Below are positions 1,008 to 9,189 of a stretch of 33,401 bases of DNA, piece by piece. A program made the translations under genes and the position numbers. The DNA is from a virus (lineage: Duplodnaviria > Heunggongvirae > Uroviricota > Caudoviricetes), in the IMG/VR virus record IMGVR_UViG_2724679239_000006. One strand, given 5' to 3'. Numbering within the stretch: position 1 is the first letter of the stretch; every line of letters starts with the position of its first letter. The notes beneath the pieces were generated by a model. The model saw only the letters and a program-made list of their open reading frames with translations. It searched no databases and was not told the DNA's origin.

Positions 1008-1355
1008 TTACTTATCACATAAATCAAATGCAGCCTTAGTGACATCTCCCAGATTCTTTTTTAACCCTGGGGCGGCATCATTATCCAGCCAAAATGGATT
1101 ATTGTTATCTAACGGTAACGCACCAAATGTTTTACCTTTTATTCGAGCCAAACCTGTAAGCGCATATAACTTATTATCGTCAAAATTCATCACATAAGGA
1201 TTACCATCTAGACACTGTAACTGAACCTCATCAGTATTAAATGGCCATACCCCATTGAAACTCTCACGTTCAATATTTTTAAAAGGCATTGCGACGGCAG
1301 AAAAAGAAAACATAGATAAAAAAGTAACTAATAGTTGAACATTTTTTACTTTCAT
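1008..1355 (-). CDS. Hypothetical secreted protein (N-terminal signal peptide), lysogeny-side accessory gene
   Basis: 115-aa ORF; N-terminus MKVKNVQLLVTFLSMFSFSAVA looks like a Sec signal peptide; lies between the repressor operon and int. Confidence 0.55.
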   Translation of the reverse strand: MKVKNVQLLVTFLSMFSFSAVAMPFKNIERESFNGVWPFNTDEVQLQCLDGNPYVMNFDDNKLYALTGLARIKGKTFGALPLDNNNPFWLDNDAAPGLKKNLGDVTKAAFDLCDK

Positions 1356-1384: not shown

Positions 1385-2035
1385 TTACAAATTAAAAAAC
1401 ATCCTAGAAATGGCACCACCTACCACCCCCCCTACGCAGATAAAGAATATTATTTCTTTTGGATAAAGTCGGATTAATTCTGAAGCACGAAGTCGGACTT
1501 CTGGTAAGGTCGAATTCTCTGTGTTGCTTGATACCGATTGTTGCTCTAACCACGACAATGCAGACTGCAACTGAGAACGAGTAAGATCGTTTAAACGTCC
1601 TGTACCGAAATTGATATGGCAATACCGCAGAAGTTTTTGTCGAAGTCCACAGTCTTCACTGTTACGTAGTAATAAACTTACAAGAGCCTTACAGGCATCA
1701 TGATCTTTACATCGCTCAAGCATTGCATGCAGAAAACTCTCCGCTGTTTTATATTGATTTACTGTCATATCATCAATACCAGCTACACCAATCTCCGCAT
1801 GTACTTTTTGCCAAATAATAAACGCTTCAGTATTGCTAGCTTCTGCAATCGCAGCAACCAAGCTATTTAGCTCCTTACGCTGAGCCTTAAGCAAAGGGCG
1901 ATCGTCATCATCATTATTCGAAGGGATTGCGATATTGACGGTATGAGAACCATCATATCGCCCTATCTGAATATTCTTTTCGTGAAAATCACGCCCAGCA
2001 ACGCGATTGTTTGAACCGTTTGAGTTGACGGCCAT
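1385..2035 (-). CDS. Hypothetical protein with C-terminal transmembrane anchor, lysogeny-side accessory gene
   Basis: 216-aa ORF with its own RBS (GGAGGTGAC before ATG); hydrophobic C-terminus IIFFICVGGVVGGAISRMFF; N-terminal motif NNRVAGRDF mirrors the C-terminus of the upstream repressor. Confidence 0.6.
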   Translation of the reverse strand: MAVNSNGSNNRVAGRDFHEKNIQIGRYDGSHTVNIAIPSNNDDDDRPLLKAQRKELNSLVAAIAEASNTEAFIIWQKVHAEIGVAGIDDMTVNQYKTAESFLHAMLERCKDHDACKALVSLLLRNSEDCGLRQKLLRYCHINFGTGRLNDLTRSQLQSALSWLEQQSVSSNTENSTLPEVRLRASELIRLYPKEIIFFICVGGVVGGAISRMFFNL

Positions 2036-2050
2036 GTCACCTCCCTACTA

Positions 2051-2455
2051 TCACCTACCCTTAGTTTCGTTATAGTCACGCCCAGCGATACGGTTATTAC
2101 CGCCAGAAATATTTAACTCACGTCCTGATGGCTGAGTTTCCTTTTCACTGGCCGCACCTTTTAAAGCCCCGATCACCGCGTTTTTCACATCTAACGAAGC
2201 TGCTCGAAAGCGAGTAATCAACTCCTGCTCATCATCGTTATAAGTTTCAGGTGAGTGAATTCCCAACACAACATACTGAACATCAAGGCCAAAACGAGAC
2301 AGCGCTGCCAAATACGCAGCATCAGGAAAGCTATCTCCTTTCTCATATCTAAGCTGAGTTAGCTTTTTGACTCCACCAATGTCGCTCATAGCAACTTGAC
2401 TAAGTCCCAATCTTTCCCTTTCCTCACGCAACCTCTGACCAATATCATTTTTCAT
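2051..2455 (-). CDS. Prophage immunity repressor, HTH XRE/Cro-C1 family (P2 C analogue)
   Basis: 134 aa; N-terminal helix-turn-helix QRLREERERLGLSQVAMSDIGGVKKLTQLRYEKG; divergent from the early operon and co-oriented with int as in P2. Confidence 0.75.
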   Translation of the reverse strand: MKNDIGQRLREERERLGLSQVAMSDIGGVKKLTQLRYEKGDSFPDAAYLAALSRFGLDVQYVVLGIHSPETYNDDEQELITRFRAASLDVKNAVIGALKGAASEKETQPSGRELNISGGNNRIAGRDYNETKGR

Positions 2456-2464
2456 ACAAAAACC

Positions 2465-2493
2465 TTGACAGGTATCTTTTTTGATACCAAAAT
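2465..2493 (+). promoter_or_regulatory. Candidate early promoter (-35 TTGACA at 2465..2470) with 18-bp operator palindrome GGTATC-N6-GATACC (2471..2488)
   Basis: Consensus -35 hexamer followed directly by a perfect inverted repeat in the divergent repressor/early-operon intergenic region; -10 element weak (CAAAAT) and uncertain. Confidence 0.35.
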
Positions 2494-2530: not shown

Positions 2531-2737
2531 ATGAAACAAGTTCTTCACGATACCAGATCACGCATTCCGCGTAACACCGCCACAGGTCCAAGACTGGCAC
2601 TTCGGCTGTCCCTCGAGGAGCGAGCCGTCATTGATGAAATGGCAGCTAAAGAACAACGCTCATCCTCTAACATGGCGCGCATGATCTTCCTTCGCGGCCT
2701 AGAGCTAACCCAGAAAGAACAAAACAAATCTTCCTGA
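2531..2737 (+). CDS. Ribbon-helix-helix DNA-binding protein, first gene of early operon (Cro/Cox-role candidate)
   Basis: 68 aa; beta-strand plus two helices pattern PRLALRLSLEERAVIDEMAAKEQRSSSNMARMIFLRGLE typical of Arc/CopG/ParD-type RHH proteins. Confidence 0.5.
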   Translation: MKQVLHDTRSRIPRNTATGPRLALRLSLEERAVIDEMAAKEQRSSSNMARMIFLRGLELTQKEQNKSS

Positions 2738-2753: not shown

Positions 2754-2957
2754 ATGTCAGGTATAACCATCAATATCAATGTGAATGCCCCCTATGTATC
2801 CCTGCAGAAATATGCAGAGATAACAGGTATCCCTCTTAATACATGCAAAAAGATGTTGGCTGACGGTCGAATTATTATCCGACCCAAACGCGCCAAAATG
2901 GAAAAGCCTGAAGTAAACCTTGTGGCGATGTTAAAAGACGCTTTGGCTAACAGCTAA
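2754..2957 (+). CDS. Small HTH protein, excisionase/AlpA-Cox-like
   Basis: 67 aa; YVSLQKYAEITGIPLNTCKKMLADGRIIIRP resembles excisionase/AlpA-type HTH; RBS AGGAGG upstream. Confidence 0.45.
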   Translation: MSGITININVNAPYVSLQKYAEITGIPLNTCKKMLADGRIIIRPKRAKMEKPEVNLVAMLKDALANS

Positions 2958-2978: not shown

Positions 2979-3329
2979 ATGAAAAAAAACACTAATATTC
3001 CATACTCCAAATTTCGTAATGGCGTAGAACGCCACGCTAACCGTTTCGCTATCAGTACATCACGTAGCAACACTCGCTACAGCCTGAGCGAAACACACGC
3101 TACACCTGATGGCCATCCCGTAAAACAAATTGGTGAACACACCTGGCTGATTGAGAAAGCTGGAATCGTGGTTCACAGATGCCAACGCAACCCATTTACC
3201 GGAAACCGCATTTTTGCTCTGAGCAACGGCGACAATCAGTTTGGACAGGATTTCACGTTGTACGAAGCTCTGCGCACGGTTGATCGTCTGCTGCGTGGAC
3301 AGAATTTCATTAAACAGGCTGATTTATAA
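2979..3329 (+). CDS. Hypothetical early protein
   Basis: 116-aa ORF in early operon; no recognisable motif. Confidence 0.45.
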   Translation: MKKNTNIPYSKFRNGVERHANRFAISTSRSNTRYSLSETHATPDGHPVKQIGEHTWLIEKAGIVVHRCQRNPFTGNRIFALSNGDNQFGQDFTLYEALRTVDRLLRGQNFIKQADL

Positions 3330-3339
3330 CAGGTGCTTT

Positions 3340-3618
3340 ATGACCAAAGACCATGCTCAGGGTGTATTTATCCGCTTTATTGATTTTCGCGGTGAGCTGT
3401 TGTTGCGCGCATCAGCTATTGATGGAGTGGTTCCGGTAGATAAAAGCACGGCCACTTACATTTATCTGAACGGCACACGCCTGACCGTAGAGATTCCATA
3501 TCAACCCGTATGCGAAATTATTAGAGAAGCTGAAAAAGCACGTCAGGTTAATAGCGATAAACCCTATCTCGAAATTATCTGCATGGATTCAGAAGCTGAA
3601 ATTCAGAAGGCAGATTAA
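3340..3618 (+). CDS. Hypothetical early protein
   Basis: ATG at 3340 (MTKDHAQ...) chosen within track ORF 3241..3618 to avoid overlap with upstream gene; 92 aa. Confidence 0.45.
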   Translation: MTKDHAQGVFIRFIDFRGELLLRASAIDGVVPVDKSTATYIYLNGTRLTVEIPYQPVCEIIREAEKARQVNSDKPYLEIICMDSEAEIQKAD

Positions 3619-3629
3619 AGGGCGTTGCG

Positions 3630-3872
3630 ATGGATAAAGAATATAAAACTCTCGTCAATAAAGCACTTGAGCGCTTTCATTTTCGCTTAAACGCATCAGG
3701 CGCTCATGCTGAACGCGCAGCCCGAGAGTCATTGACCAGAGCTATCAAGAGTATATACGACACGGCTTTTTACGTTGACGACCCGGACGCGCTCGACGAG
3801 CTTTCCGTACTCGTCTGCGCCGCAGAAAACGGGGACCATATTGAGCCATATAAACTGGGAAATATTGCATGA
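3630..3872 (+). CDS. Hypothetical early protein
   Basis: 80-aa ORF, compact spacing in early operon. Confidence 0.45.
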   Translation: MDKEYKTLVNKALERFHFRLNASGAHAERAARESLTRAIKSIYDTAFYVDDPDALDELSVLVCAAENGDHIEPYKLGNIA

Positions 3873-3982
3873 GTATATTTATCTCATGGCTTGTTCTGAT
3901 TATTTCGGTGGCCTGCGCTATTGGGATTATGCGAATTATTAATTCAGTAAAAAAGATTGAACGCTTTTTCACTGAAGAATAA
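3869..3982 (+). CDS. Small hydrophobic membrane peptide (37 aa)
   Basis: ATGA start/stop overlap with upstream ORF; translation MSIFISWLVLIISVACAIGIMRIINSVKKIERFFTEE is a single predicted TM helix; below the 60-aa cutoff of the ORF track. Confidence 0.3.
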   Translation: MSIFISWLVLIISVACAIGIMRIINSVKKIERFFTEE

Positions 3983-4068
3983 CCGCGCAAATAAGACTCC
4001 AGGTTAAATAAGAAAATGTGAAAACAATCCGCATTCGCGGAGGTATTCGCACACGCCAAGGAGGCGTA

Positions 4069-4272
4069 ATGGCAATTAAGCATTTTCCTGTCGTTCGTTT
4101 CACCTCCAGAGGACGTGAATACGAAGTTGACGAACGCCTGATTACCACAATCGACAAACACCGTTCAGAAAAGGATGCACATCACATCTATCTCACTGAC
4201 GGTACTTACTTCTGCGCCACCAACGTGGTGCAGGTGAATCTTATCAGACAGGTACAGGAGTCACGCAGATGA
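4069..4272 (+). CDS. Hypothetical early protein
   Basis: Strong RBS AAGGAGG 5 nt before ATG at 4069; 67 aa. Confidence 0.5.
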   Translation: MAIKHFPVVRFTSRGREYEVDERLITTIDKHRSEKDAHHIYLTDGTYFCATNVVQVNLIRQVQESRR

Positions 4273-4514
4273 CCATTCTGGACTACATCGCTGCCAATCC
4301 GGGTTGTAGCGGTGGAGAAATCGCCGCAGCACTGAATACACCAACCACAACCATTAATGCGGAGCTACGCCGTCTCTGGCGCAGCGGTTCAGTCATAAGA
4401 AAAGAGCGCAAAACAGGCGGTCGCTTTTCTTATCAGGTAAACCCGATGCCGTTTGGGTGTAGCAACCCTCTAACCCAGATGTTCAACCAGCTACTGAGAG
4501 AAATCAGAGCATGA
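4269..4514 (+). CDS. Putative winged-helix DNA-binding protein
   Basis: ATGA overlap with upstream ORF; 81 aa; GEIAAALNTPTTTINAELRRLWRSGSV resembles a wHTH recognition helix region. Confidence 0.45.
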   Translation: MTILDYIAANPGCSGGEIAAALNTPTTTINAELRRLWRSGSVIRKERKTGGRFSYQVNPMPFGCSNPLTQMFNQLLREIRA

Positions 4515-4655
4515 GCACCTCCAACTGCCGGAAACCACGTCGGGCTTCAGCAGCTCATCCGGCAGCAAAACAAACTCCGTTAATTCCTGTTCCGGGCCTT
4601 TCCTGCACCTTGCGGCAAGAGGCCTTCGCACATCTGCAACAAGAGGATTGCCGCA

Positions 4656-5021
4656 ATGATTCTCGCCGAAGACTTTTTTGATTACCTGCTGAAAACCGAG
4701 CGCGATTTTGGTATTCGCGTTCTCGACCGCTATGCAATGTATCTGAAATCACTGCCGGAACAGCAGCTCCCGGACGGCCAGATTGTTATTGACGGGCGCT
4801 ACATGGTTGGTAGCTGCCAGGAGGATTACACACTTTCCCGCATCGAAAGCGGCACGCCTTCCGTACTGGGTATTTACCAGCGAACTTCATCTCTGATTGC
4901 TGATGTAATTGCTGACAGCATTCGCATAACACACCGTTATGCCAGCACAGAGAGCACCATGCAGGAAATCCAGCGGCTGGCTACCGTCTGCCACAATGCA
5001 CTGAGCGGAAAGGCGGAGTAG
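4656..5021 (+). CDS. Hypothetical early protein
   Basis: 121-aa ORF immediately upstream of replication gene A. Confidence 0.45.
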   Translation: MILAEDFFDYLLKTERDFGIRVLDRYAMYLKSLPEQQLPDGQIVIDGRYMVGSCQEDYTLSRIESGTPSVLGIYQRTSSLIADVIADSIRITHRYASTESTMQEIQRLATVCHNALSGKAE

Positions 5022-5026
5022 TCGGC

Positions 5027-7810
5027 GTGGCAACGGAGTACATCAGAGACTGGCAACAACCACGCCATGCAGTCGGTCGCGAGGGAACGGGGGAGCCTGT
5101 CCGCCCCTCCCTTCTTTCTTCCTGGCTGGATGCCTACCGGGCAGAGAACGAGCGCCGCCAGGAAATGGCTGATGCGGCGTTCTCCGCTGCACCACTGGGC
5201 AATCTGATTAATAAAAGCCTGGACGCACAGGAAAAACAGGACAAAGTCATCACACTGGCAAGAGAAGCCAGAAAGCAGGCACGCGGTGCGGTGGATGAAG
5301 CCATGGCCTCGCTGCGTCTGCTGCCGTCCTATCTGCGTGATCCGCTTATCCGCCATCTCTCTTTCCTGCGCAAAAAACAGGAATCTGGCCACCAGAAAGG
5401 CAAAAAGAACCAGCAGGCGGAACGCTATGCGAGCGGAACCCTGCGCAAAATATTCGAACGCCTGGCCCGCACCGACCGTCGCTGGCTGACTCCGGGTTAT
5501 CGCTCCCTTGCCGGACGTGAACGTCTGGACGATTTGCTGTACCTGCCACAGCTCAACAAGCACCAGATACAGACGCTGGCCGTCATGACGGCGGCAATGT
5601 TCAGCAGCACCTTCGAAAAACTCTGCGATGGCTGTGGCGCGACCGACGGCGAGCTGACCATGGATATAACGCTGAAGGCGTATCAGATGCTGGCCCGCAT
5701 GGCGTTACATCTGCACACAGTGCCGCCGCATTATGACGCACTGACAACAGACAAAGACCGGAAGAACGAACCGGACACGGAACTGCTGCCGGGTGCAATC
5801 CTCCGCCTGACCTGTGCGGACTGGTGGAAACGCAAACTGTGGCTTTTACGTTGCGAATGGAGAGAGGAACAACTCCGCGCTGCCTGTCTGGTTTCCAGAA
5901 AAACATCACCCTATCTGAGTCAGGACGCATTAAGTGAATTTCGCGCACAGCGCGAGAAAACACGCGATTTCCTGAAAAGTTTCATGCTGGAAAATGAAGA
6001 CGGGTTCACGATTGATCTCGAGACAGTGTATTACGCGGGAGTAAGTAACCCGGTCCACCGTAAGGCAGAAATGATGGCCACCATGAAGGGACTGGAACTT
6101 CTGGCCGAAGCCCGTGGCGACAGAGCGGTGTTTCTGACTGTCACCTGCCCGTCAAAATACCACGCTACAACAGAGAACGGTCATCCGAATCCCAAATGGA
6201 ACGGCGCCACCATGCGCGATTCCAGTGATTACCTGGTTAACACTTTTTTTAAGGCGGTCCGCAAAAAACTGAATCGCGACGGCCTGCGCTGGTATGGCAT
6301 CCGCACGGTGGAGCCACACCATGACGGCACCGTGCACTGGCACATGATGGTCTTTGCACATCCTGAAGAAATCGACAGCATCGTGGACATCACCCGTGAT
6401 ATTGCCATTCGCGAAGACCGCCACGAGCTGGGCAATGACATAACTCCGCGCTTTAAGGCAGAGTACGTCGACGGTTCGAAAGGTACGCCGACCAGCTACA
6501 TCGCCACCTACATCGGAAAGAACCTGGACAGCCGCGCCGTGGATGGCATTGACCCGAAAACAGGCAAGCCACGCGTTGATCACGAAACCGGAAAATCAAT
6601 GGCCGAGAGCGTGGAACGCGCCATCGGCTGGGCGCGCCTTCACCGCGTCCGCCAGTTCCAGTTCTTTGGTATCCCCTCCCGTCAGGTATGGCGTGAACTC
6701 CGCCGCCTTGCCAGTCAGATGGCCCGCAACCCGGAAGGTCCACAACGTCTGGAAAATGACGCAATGGATGCGGTACTCGCTGCCGCTGATGCCGGGTGTT
6801 TTGCCACCTACATTGAGAAACAGGGTGGCGTACTTGTTCCACGCAAGGATTACCTGATTCGCACCGCCTACGACCTCGCAGAAGAGCTGAACGATTACGG
6901 CGAGCAAAGCGTACAGATTTACGGGATCTGGTCGCCACAAATCGGGGAATCTTCCCGCGTGTGCACGCACCCGGATAACTGGAAGCTGGTAAGACGTAAA
7001 CCGGAAGCGGAAGACAGCGCCCGCGAAAATGGTTTTGACCTTCAGGGCGGCCCTGCCGCCCCTTGGACTCGTGGCAATAACTGTCCCCGTGTACAGGAAA
7101 CGGACAACAACGGGACAGAACGGCCAGCACCGTGGCCGCAGCTTCCTGACGGCGTTGATGTGGATGAATGGATGCGCTCACTGAAACGGCACGAAAGCCG
7201 GGCGCTGATGCGTTCGCTGCGTGACAAACAGGCAAAAAACAACAGTGATGAAATGCAGAACTGGACACAGAGCCGCAAACAGCCGCGGCCTTTGCCTGAT
7301 AACCACGAGTTACTCGCTAAAGAATGGCGGGAGTCTGCCGAATCTCTCGGCCTGCATATCGGTGAACAACAGATGCAGCACCTGTTACGGGGCGGCAGTC
7401 TGTACGTTGACGGCAGCATCATTGCACCGCAGGGATTTGAAATTGTACGTAAACCGGATACCCGACCGGACAGCCGAATCACACAACTCTGGCAGCGCCT
7501 GAGCCGTAATCACGGCGTAAACAGCACGGAAATCCGCCATAACCCGGTTTCCAGCTATCTGAAACAGCTCGGGGCATCAGACCCAGAAGCCGCCGCACGC
7601 CTGGCATCCACAATTCAGCAGGACCAGAACACCATGAAAACACCCGTTACCGTACTTTCTGACATGCTGCGCACCATCCGTGACGCAGAGCACGCACAGA
7701 GAATCAGTGAAACCACTGAACGCGCCCGCCGCAAAGCAGACCTGCTGCGGTGGCCTGACCAGCGAAAACAAAAAACAGACAGAAACGGGATTCACAAATC
7801 CCGTAAATGA
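5027..7810 (+). CDS. A: Rolling-circle replication initiation protein (P2 gpA-like)
   Basis: 927-aa ORF (GTG start at 5027; true start uncertain); HUH-type motif GTVHWHMMVFAH and tyrosine-rich motif SYIATYIGKN typical of P2 A/phiX A-type relaxases. Confidence 0.85.
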   Translation: MATEYIRDWQQPRHAVGREGTGEPVRPSLLSSWLDAYRAENERRQEMADAAFSAAPLGNLINKSLDAQEKQDKVITLAREARKQARGAVDEAMASLRLLPSYLRDPLIRHLSFLRKKQESGHQKGKKNQQAERYASGTLRKIFERLARTDRRWLTPGYRSLAGRERLDDLLYLPQLNKHQIQTLAVMTAAMFSSTFEKLCDGCGATDGELTMDITLKAYQMLARMALHLHTVPPHYDALTTDKDRKNEPDTELLPGAILRLTCADWWKRKLWLLRCEWREEQLRAACLVSRKTSPYLSQDALSEFRAQREKTRDFLKSFMLENEDGFTIDLETVYYAGVSNPVHRKAEMMATMKGLELLAEARGDRAVFLTVTCPSKYHATTENGHPNPKWNGATMRDSSDYLVNTFFKAVRKKLNRDGLRWYGIRTVEPHHDGTVHWHMMVFAHPEEIDSIVDITRDIAIREDRHELGNDITPRFKAEYVDGSKGTPTSYIATYIGKNLDSRAVDGIDPKTGKPRVDHETGKSMAESVERAIGWARLHRVRQFQFFGIPSRQVWRELRRLASQMARNPEGPQRLENDAMDAVLAAADAGCFATYIEKQGGVLVPRKDYLIRTAYDLAEELNDYGEQSVQIYGIWSPQIGESSRVCTHPDNWKLVRRKPEAEDSARENGFDLQGGPAAPWTRGNNCPRVQETDNNGTERPAPWPQLPDGVDVDEWMRSLKRHESRALMRSLRDKQAKNNSDEMQNWTQSRKQPRPLPDNHELLAKEWRESAESLGLHIGEQQMQHLLRGGSLYVDGSIIAPQGFEIVRKPDTRPDSRITQLWQRLSRNHGVNSTEIRHNPVSSYLKQLGASDPEAAARLASTIQQDQNTMKTPVTVLSDMLRTIRDAEHAQRISETTERARRKADLLRWPDQRKQKTDRNGIHKSRK

Positions 7811-7911: not shown

Positions 7912-8871
7912 ATGAAAATTTGCATCGACGACGGCTCCACCAACATCAAGCTGGCATGGACTGAGAACGGCGAACGCCGCAACGCCATCAGCCCGAACAG
8001 CTTCAAGTCGGAATGGTCTGCGCCGTTCGGTGGCACGCAGCCCGCGAACTACATGCTTGATGGCGTGCGCTATGGTTTTGATCCGGTCAGCGATCGCTTT
8101 GTCCAGACGACCGACACGCAATACCAGTACAGCGATGTGAATGTCATTGCCATTCATCACGCGCTGGTCAAATCAGGTATCACACCACAGGAAGTGGACG
8201 TGGTTGTCACTCTGCCACTGAGCGAGTATTTCGATACAAACGCACAGCCGGACATGGCCAACATCAACCGCAAAAAAGCGAATGTCCTGCGCCCTGTGGA
8301 GTACCAGAACGGTGAAGCATTCACTATCCGCAACGTGCGGGTTATGCCTGAATCCATTCCGGCTGGCTTTAAGGCACTGGCTGACATGAGTCCGTTTGAA
8401 TCTCTGCTGATTGTGGATTTAGGCGGAACAACGCTGGATGTGGCAAAGGTTCAGGGGCAACTGGCAGGCATCAGCCAGGTATTTTGCGATCCACATGTGG
8501 GCGTTTCCCTGATGACCGATGCCGTGTTGTCGGTGATGGCCGCCAACGGCATGCGTACCAGTCACCACGTCGCCAGTACCGTTATTGAACATCGTCACGA
8601 TGAAGCCTGGCTGCGCCGGCACATCCACAATGACGCGCATTACAACAGCCTGATGGCAGTTATTCGTGAAAAGGAGGAGACACTAAAACAACGCGTGATC
8701 CGCGCACTCGCGGGCTTTTCGGGTTACGGGCGGGTGCTGGTTGTCGGTGGAGGAGCGGAGATTGTGGCACCCGCAGTCCATGAAGTCTATGGAGTCAATG
8801 CGAATTTCATCACAGACGGGGTGCCACAGTTTGCTCTGGTTAACGGTCTGTACGCTATGGATAAGGAGTAA
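7912..8871 (+). CDS. parM: Actin-like segregation ATPase ParM/StbA
   Basis: 319 aa; N-terminus MKICIDDGSTNIKLAW and colinear conserved blocks (YSDVNVIAIHHAL, VMPESIPAG, LIVDLGGTTLD, VVGGGAE, LVNGLY) match plasmid R1 ParM as remembered. Confidence 0.85.
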   Translation: MKICIDDGSTNIKLAWTENGERRNAISPNSFKSEWSAPFGGTQPANYMLDGVRYGFDPVSDRFVQTTDTQYQYSDVNVIAIHHALVKSGITPQEVDVVVTLPLSEYFDTNAQPDMANINRKKANVLRPVEYQNGEAFTIRNVRVMPESIPAGFKALADMSPFESLLIVDLGGTTLDVAKVQGQLAGISQVFCDPHVGVSLMTDAVLSVMAANGMRTSHHVASTVIEHRHDEAWLRRHIHNDAHYNSLMAVIREKEETLKQRVIRALAGFSGYGRVLVVGGGAEIVAPAVHEVYGVNANFITDGVPQFALVNGLYAMDKE

Positions 8872-8877
8872 CCCTCC

Positions 8878-9189
8878 ATGGCGACATTAACCAGAAGAAT
8901 AAGTTTCTATCTGAAGCCAGCCGCCGTCAAGAACGAAGGCAAAGCATGCGACTGGCTGGACAGCCTTACACCAGAAGCCCGCAAAAGCGGCCAACGCGTG
9001 GCTTTTCTGGCCGGGCTGGCACTTCTGAAAATGAATCCGGCAGAGGCTTACCGACTGTCTGCATGGGCTGATGATGAGGCGTTATCAGTGACACAAACCA
9101 GGGCAGAACGCCACATGTTACAGCCAGCGCCCACCGCACAGATAACCAGTCAGATAGCCGGAAATATCCGGGCGTTATTTCCCGAATAA
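8878..9189 (+). CDS. parR: ParR-like centromere-binding adaptor (RHH)
   Basis: 103 aa directly downstream of parM; RRISFYLKPAAV...CDWLDSLTPEARKSGQRVAFLAGLAL parallels the R1 ParR N-terminal region. Confidence 0.7.
   Translation: MATLTRRISFYLKPAAVKNEGKACDWLDSLTPEARKSGQRVAFLAGLALLKMNPAEAYRLSAWADDEALSVTQTRAERHMLQPAPTAQITSQIAGNIRALFPE

Follow-up and report, generated by a model that had tools for sequence, protein, structure and literature searches.

What are the small genes packed between a Cox-like gene and the replication gene A of a P2-family prophage that carries no recognizable P2-type B? To approach this question we analyzed one strand of a 33,401-nucleotide stretch of DNA, which as a whole we call the window. 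Judged by its gene order, which is that of phage P88, and by its identity to the chromosome of E. coli F2_407_2_2 (99.9%) and to phage 520873 (98%), the window is a P88-like prophage of the genus Xuanwuvirus (Peduoviridae), integrated beside yecA/tyrP. Its early block (2979-5021) is of the ordinary kind for the P88-like prophages of the P2 family, which are very common in E. coli. Of 5426 complete E. coli genomes, 1385 contain matching DNA; homologs of the ORFs also occur in Salmonella, Citrobacter, Cronobacter and E. albertii, although the families are narrow in taxonomic range. These homologs, and the Pfam and PHROG families to which the ORFs belong, contradict an earlier reading of the sequence alone (hereafter, the sequence-only reading), which had called the genes ORFans. 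We consider it fairly probable that this region represents an early lytic operon of Pe type in a P88-like prophage, in which a lineage-specific backbone of accessory and regulatory genes is joined to a replication module made of the gene before A (pre-A, here ORF8) and A. The gene families are catalogued, and the small genes are conserved and real; the single observation that goes beyond annotation is the swapping of pre-A together with the start of A.

Eight ORFs on the same strand separate the Cox-like gene from A (Table 1). A promoter-like site separates the divergent repressor gene from the first early gene, and the 20-nt direct repeats around it are probably operators; P2 has the same layout in Pe, O1 and O2. 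The Cox-like protein resembles 186 Apl (phmmer E 7e-5). ATGA overlaps are found at 3869-3872, 4269-4272 and, as a third, 4511-4514, and a fourth at 4656-4659 links a pseudogene frame to ORF8. The remaining intergenic gaps measure 5-21 nt, with the single exception of 86 nt between ORF4 and ORF5, and no plus-strand terminator is predicted. Such short gaps and ATGA overlaps argue for translational coupling. The sequence-only reading had described a compact early operon ahead of A, with coupled translation of some of its genes, and the common strand, short gaps and overlaps bear this out; the ORF coordinates and the overlaps at 3869 and 4269 were all found as it gave them. The Arc-like gene falls outside the 2979-5021 region to which that reading applied. 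Going by pattern scans, relief of the divergent repressor would probably release one message from about 2465-2493, carrying the Arc-like and Cox-like genes, ORF1-ORF6, ORF8 and then A.

Table 1. Features of the early region and its surroundings, in window coordinates.
Feature	Position	Strand	Basis or remark
Divergent repressor gene	2051-2455	-	Upstream of early genes
20-nt direct repeats	2438-2457 and 2468-2487		Flank promoter-like site
Promoter-like site TTGACA-17-CAAAAT, putative Pe analog	2465-2493	+	Consensus scan, 10/12 matches
Arc-like ribbon-helix-helix gene, 68 aa, first gene of operon	2531-2737	+	phrog_3431 Arc-like repressor, E 1e-28; weak RHH_1 match
Cox-like excisionase/repressor, 67 aa	2754-2957	+	phrog_575, E 1e-27
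ORF1, DUF4761 protein, 116 aa, pI 10.1	2979-3329	+	Pfam DUF4761
ORF2, 92 aa, acidic	3340-3618	+	phrog_3800, E 2e-52
ORF3, DUF4754 protein, 80 aa, acidic	3630-3872	+	Pfam DUF4754
ORF4, 37-aa single-pass membrane peptide	3869-3982	+	Start overlaps ORF3 stop (ATGA)
Cargo slot B, 86-nt spacer	3983-4068	+	Locus architectures compared
ORF5, 67 aa	4069-4272	+	phrog_3459, E 1e-45; stop overlaps ORF6 start
ORF6, 81-aa stand-alone winged helix-turn-helix protein	4269-4514	+	MarR_2, HTH_24 matches
ORF7, 56 aa, deletion scar, not a gene	4511-4681	+	Alignments
ORF8, pre-A gene, 121 aa, acidic	4656-5021	+	phrog_3237, E 2e-36
Exchangeable cassette, ORF8 plus first 38-98 codons of A	4661-5320	+	Conserved flanks
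Gene A, rolling-circle replication endonuclease, 927 aa, GTG start	5027-7810	+	Pfam Phage_GPA, E 4e-129

None of the small ORFs had been thought to match a recognizable motif. Profile searches show otherwise, as ORF1 and ORF3 are members of DUF4761 and DUF4754, ORF6 is a winged-helix protein, and PHROG families cover ORF2, ORF5 and ORF8. Both Pfam matches cover the complete model, namely positions 1-105 of 105 for ORF1 (E 8e-67, 222.3 bits) and 1-80 of 80 for ORF3 (E 2e-53, 178.8 bits), with a gathering threshold of 27 in each case. ORF1, which is found in 51 of 54 related loci, has a basic, disordered N-terminus (residues 1-31) followed by a folded domain of five strands and a C-terminal helix. 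ORF2 (48 of 54 loci, pN/pS 0.26) represents a lineage-restricted family, for which 1.84 billion proteins yield only 20 cluster representatives; an exhaustive phmmer search with it returned this tiny family and no informative fusion, and it has no PDB relative. ORF3 (52 of 54 loci, pN/pS 0.23) looks helical by its composition. The membrane peptide described in the sequence-only reading is present as ORF4, whose one strongly hydrophobic stretch reaches 2.68 on the Kyte-Doolittle scale (maximum over 19 residues); the peptide is conserved at 81-100% in 58 related loci (pN/pS 0.33), carries the UniProt name ‘Prophage membrane protein’ and occurs on at least 998 contigs. Sequence and profile searches of the PDB with ORFs 1, 2, 3, 5, 6 and 8 gave nothing meaningful, and our literature search found no paper that mentions DUF4761, DUF4754 or DUF5405 and, in the literature on Xuanwuvirus, P88 and CP-933T, no statement on the early-block genes.

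ORF5 (53 of 54 loci, pN/pS 0.16) is preceded by a strong Shine-Dalgarno sequence, AAGGAGG, and is limited, among deposited genomes, to Xuanwuvirus-like phages. ORF6 (43 of 54 loci, pN/pS 0.15) passes the cut-offs of MarR_2 (28.7 bits, cut-off 27) and HTH_24 (27.6 bits, cut-off 21.9). In a full MarR architecture of some 140-160 aa, dimerization helices at both termini surround the winged helix. ORF6, at 81 aa and with a match to the winged-helix core alone, is more aptly called a stand-alone winged-helix protein than a full MarR-family regulator, and its nearest PDB sequences are YhgG/FeoC proteins of 78-85 aa (E 0.012). A single PHROG model, phrog_19053, holds both ORF5-like and ORF6-like segments. 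ORF6, probably with the coupled ORF5, may form a small DNA-binding regulator. Separately, ORF2 and ORF5 had by eye seemed to share a pattern, and we considered them as paralogs; they give no BLASTP alignment, and hhalign assigns them a probability of 0.6%.

If the block were a host-takeover or anti-defense island, then its small proteins would inhibit division or replication, or else restriction-modification, CRISPR or other defenses. In keeping with this, the genes are early, and their small products are acidic or basic and carry no enzymatic domain, one of them being a small membrane peptide, and ORF2 is now and then exchanged for an unrelated gene (of 84-85 aa, in 3 of 54 loci). In SEN5 and phiT5282H, moreover, the DUF4761 gene stands directly upstream of homologs of Fil and Dhr, which are host-directed in 186, and ORF2-ORF4 fill that place here. 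However, neither Pfam nor NCBIfam scans of the ORFs reveal a relevant defense or anti-defense family, and PADLOC, whose models describe defense and which is a weak test for this purpose, returns weak winged-helix-type noise for ORF6 and a match of ORF3 to PbeC at E 0.009. The fold of ORF1 resembles no known inhibitor. No ORF matches Phage_186_Fil, on which 186 Fil itself scores 84 bits, and neither phmmer nor hhalign links any of them to Fil or Dhr. The presence and order of the backbone genes are also nearly invariant over the 54 loci, under purifying selection, which is unusual for counter-defense genes, and this stability next to the turnover in neighboring cargo slots argues against classic anti-defense cargo. 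We think it rather unlikely that the block is such an island. On our preferred reading as an early lytic operon, ORF1-ORF4 would be accessory early proteins at the place that fil and dhr take in related phages, so a host-directed role is most likely for ORF2-ORF4, by a weak positional analogy, because other Peduoviridae have fil/dhr homologs right after the DUF4761 gene.

When the ORFs were compared with the early proteins of P2, 186 and Fels-2-type phages, a single link emerged, that of ORF8 to DUF5405. ORF8 scores 18.6 bits on this Pfam model (E 0.0027), which is under the gathering threshold of 21.6; the P88-type pre-A allele scores 13.9 bits and a 129-aa allele gives no hit, as compared to 119.5 bits for P2 Orf81, 50 bits for P2 Orf83 and 64.6 bits for 186 CP83. 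A profile of the pre-A family aligns with Orf83/CP83 over residues 42-117 versus 4-87 (hhalign probability 70%, E 4e-5) and, run by hmmsearch against a small set of some 35 sequences, finds 186 CP83 at E 1e-5. Relative to DUF5405, ORF8 is extended at its N-terminus by about 40 aa of helical sequence. One of its cluster-mates, with an identity of 90% or more, carries the NCBI name ‘DUF5405 family protein’, and the AF2 model of ORF8 (pLDDT 56) is too poor for a fold-similarity search. Position is comparable as well: the stop codon of ORF8 lies 5 nt ahead of the A start, P2 orf83 overlaps the A start, and CP83 is one gene upstream of A in 186, with CP84 between. ORF8 is thus probably a divergent member of the DUF5405 family of P2 Orf81/Orf83 and 186 CP83. 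The sequence-only reading had named clear homology to characterized P2 orf78-83 or B proteins of known housekeeping function as evidence against it; with ORF8 as a probable distant relative of Orf81/Orf83 in a syntenic position this is partly the case, although no role is known for those two P2 proteins.

ORF8 does not vary on its own. In sliding comparisons, identity falls to 70-77% over 4661-5140 against P88 and to 34-50% over 4661-5320 against the type-3 locus, with flanks at 77-95%. Across loci, the type of pre-A allele tracks the identity of A residues 1-175 (92-99%, 86-90% or 46-62%), whereas residues 176-927 are 91-100% identical whatever the allele. These alignments indicate that ORF8 and the N-terminal segment of A, some 40-100 codons long, are exchanged between phages as one unit. 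Their co-inheritance could be plain physical linkage. The record of 186, for its part, states that translation of A requires translation through the gene upstream of it, and the DUF5405-type ORF8 may cooperate with the N-terminal part of A or control its expression, the two acting as one replication module. A more far-reaching version would make ORF8 the cognate partner of the A N-terminus, an exchangeable specificity module for initiation control or for recruitment of host replisome components in P2-family phages that lack B, and ORF2-ORF5 a non-homologous equivalent of the Fil/Dhr shut-off of 186; we hold this combination to be decidedly unlikely. The swap offers a handle on the role of DUF5405, a family conserved beside A in P2, in 186 and in P88-like phages.

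The absence of B stood up to sequence and profile comparison, as the sequence-only reading had claimed. No ORF of the window hits phrog_235, the P2 B family, at E <= 0.01 (P2 B itself does so at E 4e-104), and comparison of P2 B with the window ORFs by phmmer, blastp, hhalign and hmmsearch gave noise, with a best probability of 1.5%. B is restricted to the genus Peduovirus, where it occurs in 76 phage records, all at least 85% identical, and it is also missing from phage 186 and Fels-2-like phages. As homologs of A are found in 384 phage records, the missing B is unremarkable. Both the absent B, which is normal for this phage family, and the ORFan label invited over-interpretation. Replication of 186 reportedly depends on DnaC and needs A alone. 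By analogy, B would be dispensable here too, with A and the host DnaB loading pathway sufficing, presumably with the same DnaC dependence.

Alternatively, P2 B might have a single non-homologous replacement in the backbone, with ORF8 and ORF1 as the most plausible candidates, which would bring in or load DnaB for synthesis of the lagging strand. In favor of this, ORF8 forms a fixed cassette with the A N-terminus at the DUF5405 site of P2 and 186, ORF1 is basic with a disordered tail, and phage helicase loaders are small and often non-homologously replaced, to go by the title of one paper (PMC11087808). However, most phages with an A homolog have no B, profile comparisons reveal nothing B-like among the ORFs, and the 186 record lists CP83, a DUF5405 protein, as not essential. 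P2 has B and two DUF5405 genes, so DUF5405 is no substitute for B in P2. A replacement of this kind is, in our judgment, highly improbable, and we continue with the early lytic operon.

The backbone of this operon (ORF1-ORF6 and ORF8) is stable, lineage-specific and interrupted by cargo slots. Over the 54 loci, variable cargo is confined to these separate slots: Ead/Ea22, membrane, SPFH lipoprotein, HTH and derepression genes vary in presence and keep fixed positions, and a PHROG scan finds genes of 105-136 aa (phrog_9338, phrog_26764, phrog_16975) in cargo slot B of relatives. In the window copy the slots are empty. ORF7 marks one of them. Over its first ~30 nt it aligns with the beginning of the P88 Ead/Ea22-like gene, and from ~4541 it continues into the 3' end of the derepression gene, out of frame, and then into the conserved segment before ORF8; PGAP calls an ‘ash family’ pseudogene at 4540-4659, in a frame other than that of ORF7. 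The scar form occurs in 14 of the 54 loci, Ead in 40 and the derepression gene in 32. ORF7 matches no Pfam, PHROG or NCBIfam family, its exact peptide is missing from a collection of 15 billion proteins, and its pN/pS is 0.5, on little divergence. The alignments identify it as the junction left by deletion of the Ead/Ea22-to-derepression cargo. An RNA element in the conserved segment 4515-4660 was considered and rejected: the fold z-score is -0.54, and Rfam gives no hit in the window.

Of the seven or eight small genes initially counted, seven are accordingly real, being under purifying selection (pN/pS 0.14-0.33 against up to 43 distinct homologs), and ORF7 is a deletion junction. A reading of the ORFs as frames open by chance, or as pseudogenes decaying in a defective prophage, fits ORF7, a scar without family and absent from protein collections, but is refuted for the other seven by their selection, their strong family matches and a gene order kept in inducible phages such as P88, and retains next to no probability. 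These seven early genes are carried by about one quarter of complete E. coli genomes, O157:H7 and ST131 lineages included, and are worthwhile yet conventional targets for deletion and expression.

Compared with known systems, the backbone would be a non-homologous substitute for cII/fil/dhr/orf80-82 of 186 and for orf78/B/orf80-82 of P2. The P2 operon (cox-orf78-B-orf80-orf81-orf82-orf83-A) has the same overall architecture, with a DUF5405 gene, orf83, just before A; its B (phrog_235), a DnaB-interacting protein, has nothing similar in the window, and orf78, orf80 and orf82 are without counterparts. The A protein of the window is 32% identical to both P2 A and 186 A. Like the window, 186 (apl-cII-fil-dhr-CP80-CP84-A) has a polycistronic operon of the Pe/pR type that begins with a Cox/Apl-type gene, ends with A and lacks a P2-type B, and it too has small non-essential genes in mid-operon, a DUF5405 gene near A and translation coupled into A; no homology was detected between ORF1-ORF6 and cII, fil, dhr or CP80-82. 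The closest relatives of A beyond the genus (42% identity) have a 186-type early operon, in which ORF1-ORF6 find no profile hit, and a scan of genome contigs with A yielded only four close loci. Salmonella SEN4/SEN5 and Enterobacter phiT5282H resemble the window in having a DUF4761 gene soon after cox (hmmsearch E 2e-14); their protein is just 68 aa, without the basic N-terminal tail of ORF1, and is followed by Fil/Dhr homologs and Dam methylases instead of ORF2-ORF6. The closest likeness is to the Xuanwuvirus phages P88 and 520873, which share the order DUF4761, phrog_3800, DUF4754, 37-aa membrane peptide, phrog_3459, winged-helix protein, pre-A and A, at 69-100% amino-acid identity across the early operon; the ORF8 allele is 69% identical to that of P88. 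The immunity modules differ, with an Arc-like protein and a 67-aa Cox in the window and a 141-aa Cox in P88. Where P88 carries Ead/Ea22, a membrane protein, an SPFH lipoprotein and derepression cargo, the window presents the minimal form of the same operon, with the ORF7 scar.

Eight plus-strand ORFs, ORF1 to ORF8, span the interval between the Cox-like gene and gene A, which encodes the rolling-circle replication endonuclease. The ATGA overlaps claimed by the sequence-only reading at 3869 and 4269 are both present, and there is an additional one at 4511; the remaining intergenic gaps are 5-21 nt, with the exception of 86 nt between ORF4 and ORF5. Upstream of the first early gene, in the gap that separates it from the divergent HTH repressor gene, there is a sigma-70-like site; 20-nt direct repeats with 30-nt spacing (ACAGGTATC...GATAC) flank this site and overlap its -35 region. 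By analogy with O1/O2 of P2, in which the annotated Pe/operator arrangement is the same, these repeats are likely repressor operators. No plus-strand terminator was predicted in the early region down to A. The Arc-like gene was not called by PGAP in a 99.9% identical genome, where a 45-aa minus-strand ORF is annotated inside it instead, probably a mis-annotation.

Features of the early region and its neighbours. pN/pS was calculated against at most 43 distinct homologues, drawn from 58 IMG/VR loci; the last column gives presence among 54 comparable loci.
Feature	Coordinates	Strand	Length	Family match or remark	pN/pS	Loci
DUF2511 protein gene	1008-1355	-		signal-like N-terminus; between integrase and repressor		
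216-aa protein gene	1385-2035	-	216 aa	hydrophobic C-terminus, no family; between integrase and repressor		
HTH repressor gene	2051-2455	-		divergent from early operon		
Direct repeats	2438-2487					
Sigma-70-like site	2465-2493			TTGACA-17-CAAAAT		
Arc-like gene	2531-2737			phrog_3431, E 1e-28		
Cox-like gene	2754-2957					
ORF1	2979-3329	+	116 aa	Pfam DUF4761, 222 bits	0.14	51/54
ORF2	3340-3618	+	92 aa	phrog_3800, E 2e-52	0.26	48/54
ORF3	3630-3872	+	80 aa	Pfam DUF4754, 179 bits	0.23	52/54
ORF4	3869-3982	+	37 aa	single hydrophobic span	0.33	nearly all
ORF5	4069-4272	+	67 aa	phrog_3459, E 1e-45; AAGGAGG Shine-Dalgarno sequence	0.16	53/54
ORF6	4269-4514	+	81 aa	MarR_2 + HTH_24, scores barely over threshold	0.15	43/54
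ORF7	4511-4681	+	56 aa		0.5 (little divergence behind figure)	
Segment upstream of ORF8	4541-4655		115 nt			
ORF8	4656-5021	+	121 aa	phrog_3237, E 2e-36	0.32	54/54 (pre-A gene)
A	5027-7810		927 aa			
Partition genes	7912-9189			ParM (StbA_N + ParM C-terminal domain); Plasmid_stab_B		

The E. coli F2_407_2_2 chromosome carries the block at 99.9% identity, in a prophage that adjoins yecA/tyrP. Escherichia phage 520873 matches the block at 98%; for P88, P884B11 and further members of Xuanwuvirus the match covers parts of it, at 84-88%. Of 5426 complete E. coli genomes, 1385 contain matching DNA, and in 361 of these the match extends over 80% or more of the 2.7-kb query. The early operon in this region has thus been catalogued before, and the prophage type to which it belongs is very common. 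Named 'Prophage membrane protein' in UniProt, ORF4 is 81-100% conserved and present on at least 998 contigs. Because of this conservation and the family matches of the others, seven of the ORFs are conserved, catalogued genes. Most of the sequence-only observation holds; the label 'ORFan' was wrong. The families are taxonomically narrow (chiefly Escherichia, some Salmonella, Citrobacter and Cronobacter), and ORF2, used as the query of an exhaustive phmmer search of 1.84 billion proteins, retrieved no more than 20 cluster representatives.

ORF7 is a different matter. The initial ~30 nt correspond to the beginning of the P88 Ead/Ea22-like gene, which there follows the winged-helix gene. The remainder, from ~4541 on, can be aligned to the 3'-terminal part of a 'derepression protein' gene and to the stretch that precedes the pre-A gene, as we call ORF8 and its counterparts directly upstream of A. 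The ORF7 frame differs from that of the derepression gene and reads past the ancestral stop; in two genomes, PGAP annotates 4540-4659 in yet another frame, as a pseudogene of the 'ash family' whose N-terminus is truncated. ORF7 matched no family in Pfam and PHROG profile searches, and its exact peptide was not found in a collection of 15 billion proteins. Among the 54 loci, the compact scar form occurs in 14, the Ead/Ea22-like gene in 40 and the derepression gene in 32. Thus, of the eight genes originally counted, seven are real, and ORF7, judged by these alignments, the missing family and the absent peptide, is a scar. The segment at 4541-4655, which contains the derepression-gene tail and the 'ash family' frame (its TGA overlaps the ORF8 ATG), is conserved at 92-95% identity between phages that share only ~75% identity in ORF8. 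Its RNA fold was not significant (z -0.54), and it may be a recombination linker at a module boundary.

We clustered all plus-strand ORFs from the switch region to A in the 54 loci. Alongside a stable backbone (ORF1-ORF6 and ORF8), gene turnover is seen in three slots: from the Cox-type gene to ORF1; from ORF4 to ORF5, with 105-136-aa genes; and from ORF6 to the pre-A gene, with the Ead/Ea22-like gene, a 67-aa membrane protein, an SPFH/Band-7 lipoprotein, an HTH protein, ash remnants and a derepression-family protein. The window is the minimal form, the latter two slots both being empty. ORF2 is the only backbone gene with allelic replacement, an unrelated 84-85-aa gene standing in its place in three loci. 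No recognised anti-defence gene was found among the cargo of the 54 loci; the anti-defence reading is without positive support and, for the invariant backbone, somewhat disfavoured.

The ORF1 model has a disordered basic N-terminus and a domain of five strands and one helix (pLDDT 82-91, residues 41-100), with no significant structural neighbours in PDB or BFVD. Senquatrovirus SEN4/SEN5 and Novemvirus phiT5282H have a 68-aa version of DUF4761, flanked on one side by cox and on the other by homologues of 186 Fil/Dhr. This gene order places DUF4761 in a host-directed early-gene neighbourhood and gives ORF2-ORF4 the place of fil/dhr; by position only, these three could plausibly have a host-directed role. 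Searches for relatives of known structure or function found none for ORF2, ORF3 or ORF5. ORF6 is a stand-alone winged helix, not a full-length MarR protein, and is nearest in size and sequence to YhgG/FeoC. Because ORF5 is coupled to ORF6 and both match a single PHROG model (phrog_19053), there is a hint that they act together.

Pfam DUF5405, whose members include P2 Orf81, P2 Orf83 and 186 CP83, gives ORF8 a score of 18.6 bits (threshold 21.6). Three pre-A alleles, all phrog_3237, occur in related loci: that of the window, that of P88 (69% aa identity) and a 129-aa type. Combined into one profile, they align with Orf83/CP83 along the entire DUF5405 domain (probability 70% in hhalign, E 4e-5); the profile also finds CP83 by hmmsearch (E 1e-5, small database). 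Given these scores, the NCBI name 'DUF5405 family protein' of a cluster-mate at least 90% identical, and the position beside A that ORF8 shares with the DUF5405 genes of P2 and 186, ORF8 is probably a divergent member with an extra N-terminal region of ~40 aa, despite its sub-threshold Pfam score. With Orf81 (119.5 bits) and Orf83 (50 bits) both in DUF5405, P2 has two paralogues; the RefSeq label 'replication initiation protein' on Orf81 apparently lacks an experimental basis.

The most useful lead, and a new point, is that ORF8 and the A N-terminus form a cassette. In the 115 nt preceding ORF8, nucleotide identity to P88 is 93-95%; over ORF8, start codon included, and the first 38 codons of A it is 70-77%, and beyond that 92-95% again. 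In the comparison with a locus of the 129-aa allele, everything between the ORF8 start and ~codon 98 of A is unalignable (34-50%). Across loci, how similar A residues 1-175 are can be predicted from the pre-A allele type (92-99%, 86-90% or 46-62% identity), whereas residues 176-505 and 506-927 are 91-100% identical whatever the allele. ORF8 and the A N-terminus thus travel together, a pattern that fits a functional unit, although simple linkage could also account for it. Such a functional unit could be a protein partnership or, as the 186 record gives for orf84/A, an arrangement in cis that couples translation into A. Phage_GPA matches only A residues 178-502, so that ~175 residues at the N-terminus and ~425 at the C-terminus have no domain match. 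A is annotated at 2823 nt (~940 aa) in the 99.9%-identical genome, which appears to reflect a C-terminal difference or an indel outside the compared segment.

Directly downstream of A lie the partition genes, in a prophage that also bears an integrase, and NZ_CP148288, a complete P88-like genome that shares the early operon, was deposited as a 34,461-bp circular 'plasmid'. Together these suggest an episomal/phage-plasmid state, or capture of an excised form. The two genes on the lysogenic strand between integrase and repressor are candidates for lysogenic conversion or exclusion.

That the operon has no recognisable homologue of P2 B, the helicase loader, was confirmed: phmmer, BLASTP, hhalign and hmmsearch found no likeness to B in the window ORFs. 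B itself matches phrog_235 and has no Pfam family. By tblastn it occurs in only 76 phage records, every one at least 85% identical (genus Peduovirus), and the window A has homologues in 384; on these counts, absence of B is the rule, not an oddity. The 186 record also has no B-type gene and flags CP80-CP84 as non-essential, and 186 replication reportedly needs A alone and depends on host DnaC. The nearest A relatives outside the genus, at 42% identity, are Fels-2-like and Kapieceevirus phages, which carry a 186-type operon (cII, fil, DUF5347, DUF2732, DksA-like, Dam). Since that operon shares nothing with ORF1-ORF6, we infer that the P88-type backbone is a lineage-specific, non-homologous replacement of accessory early genes.
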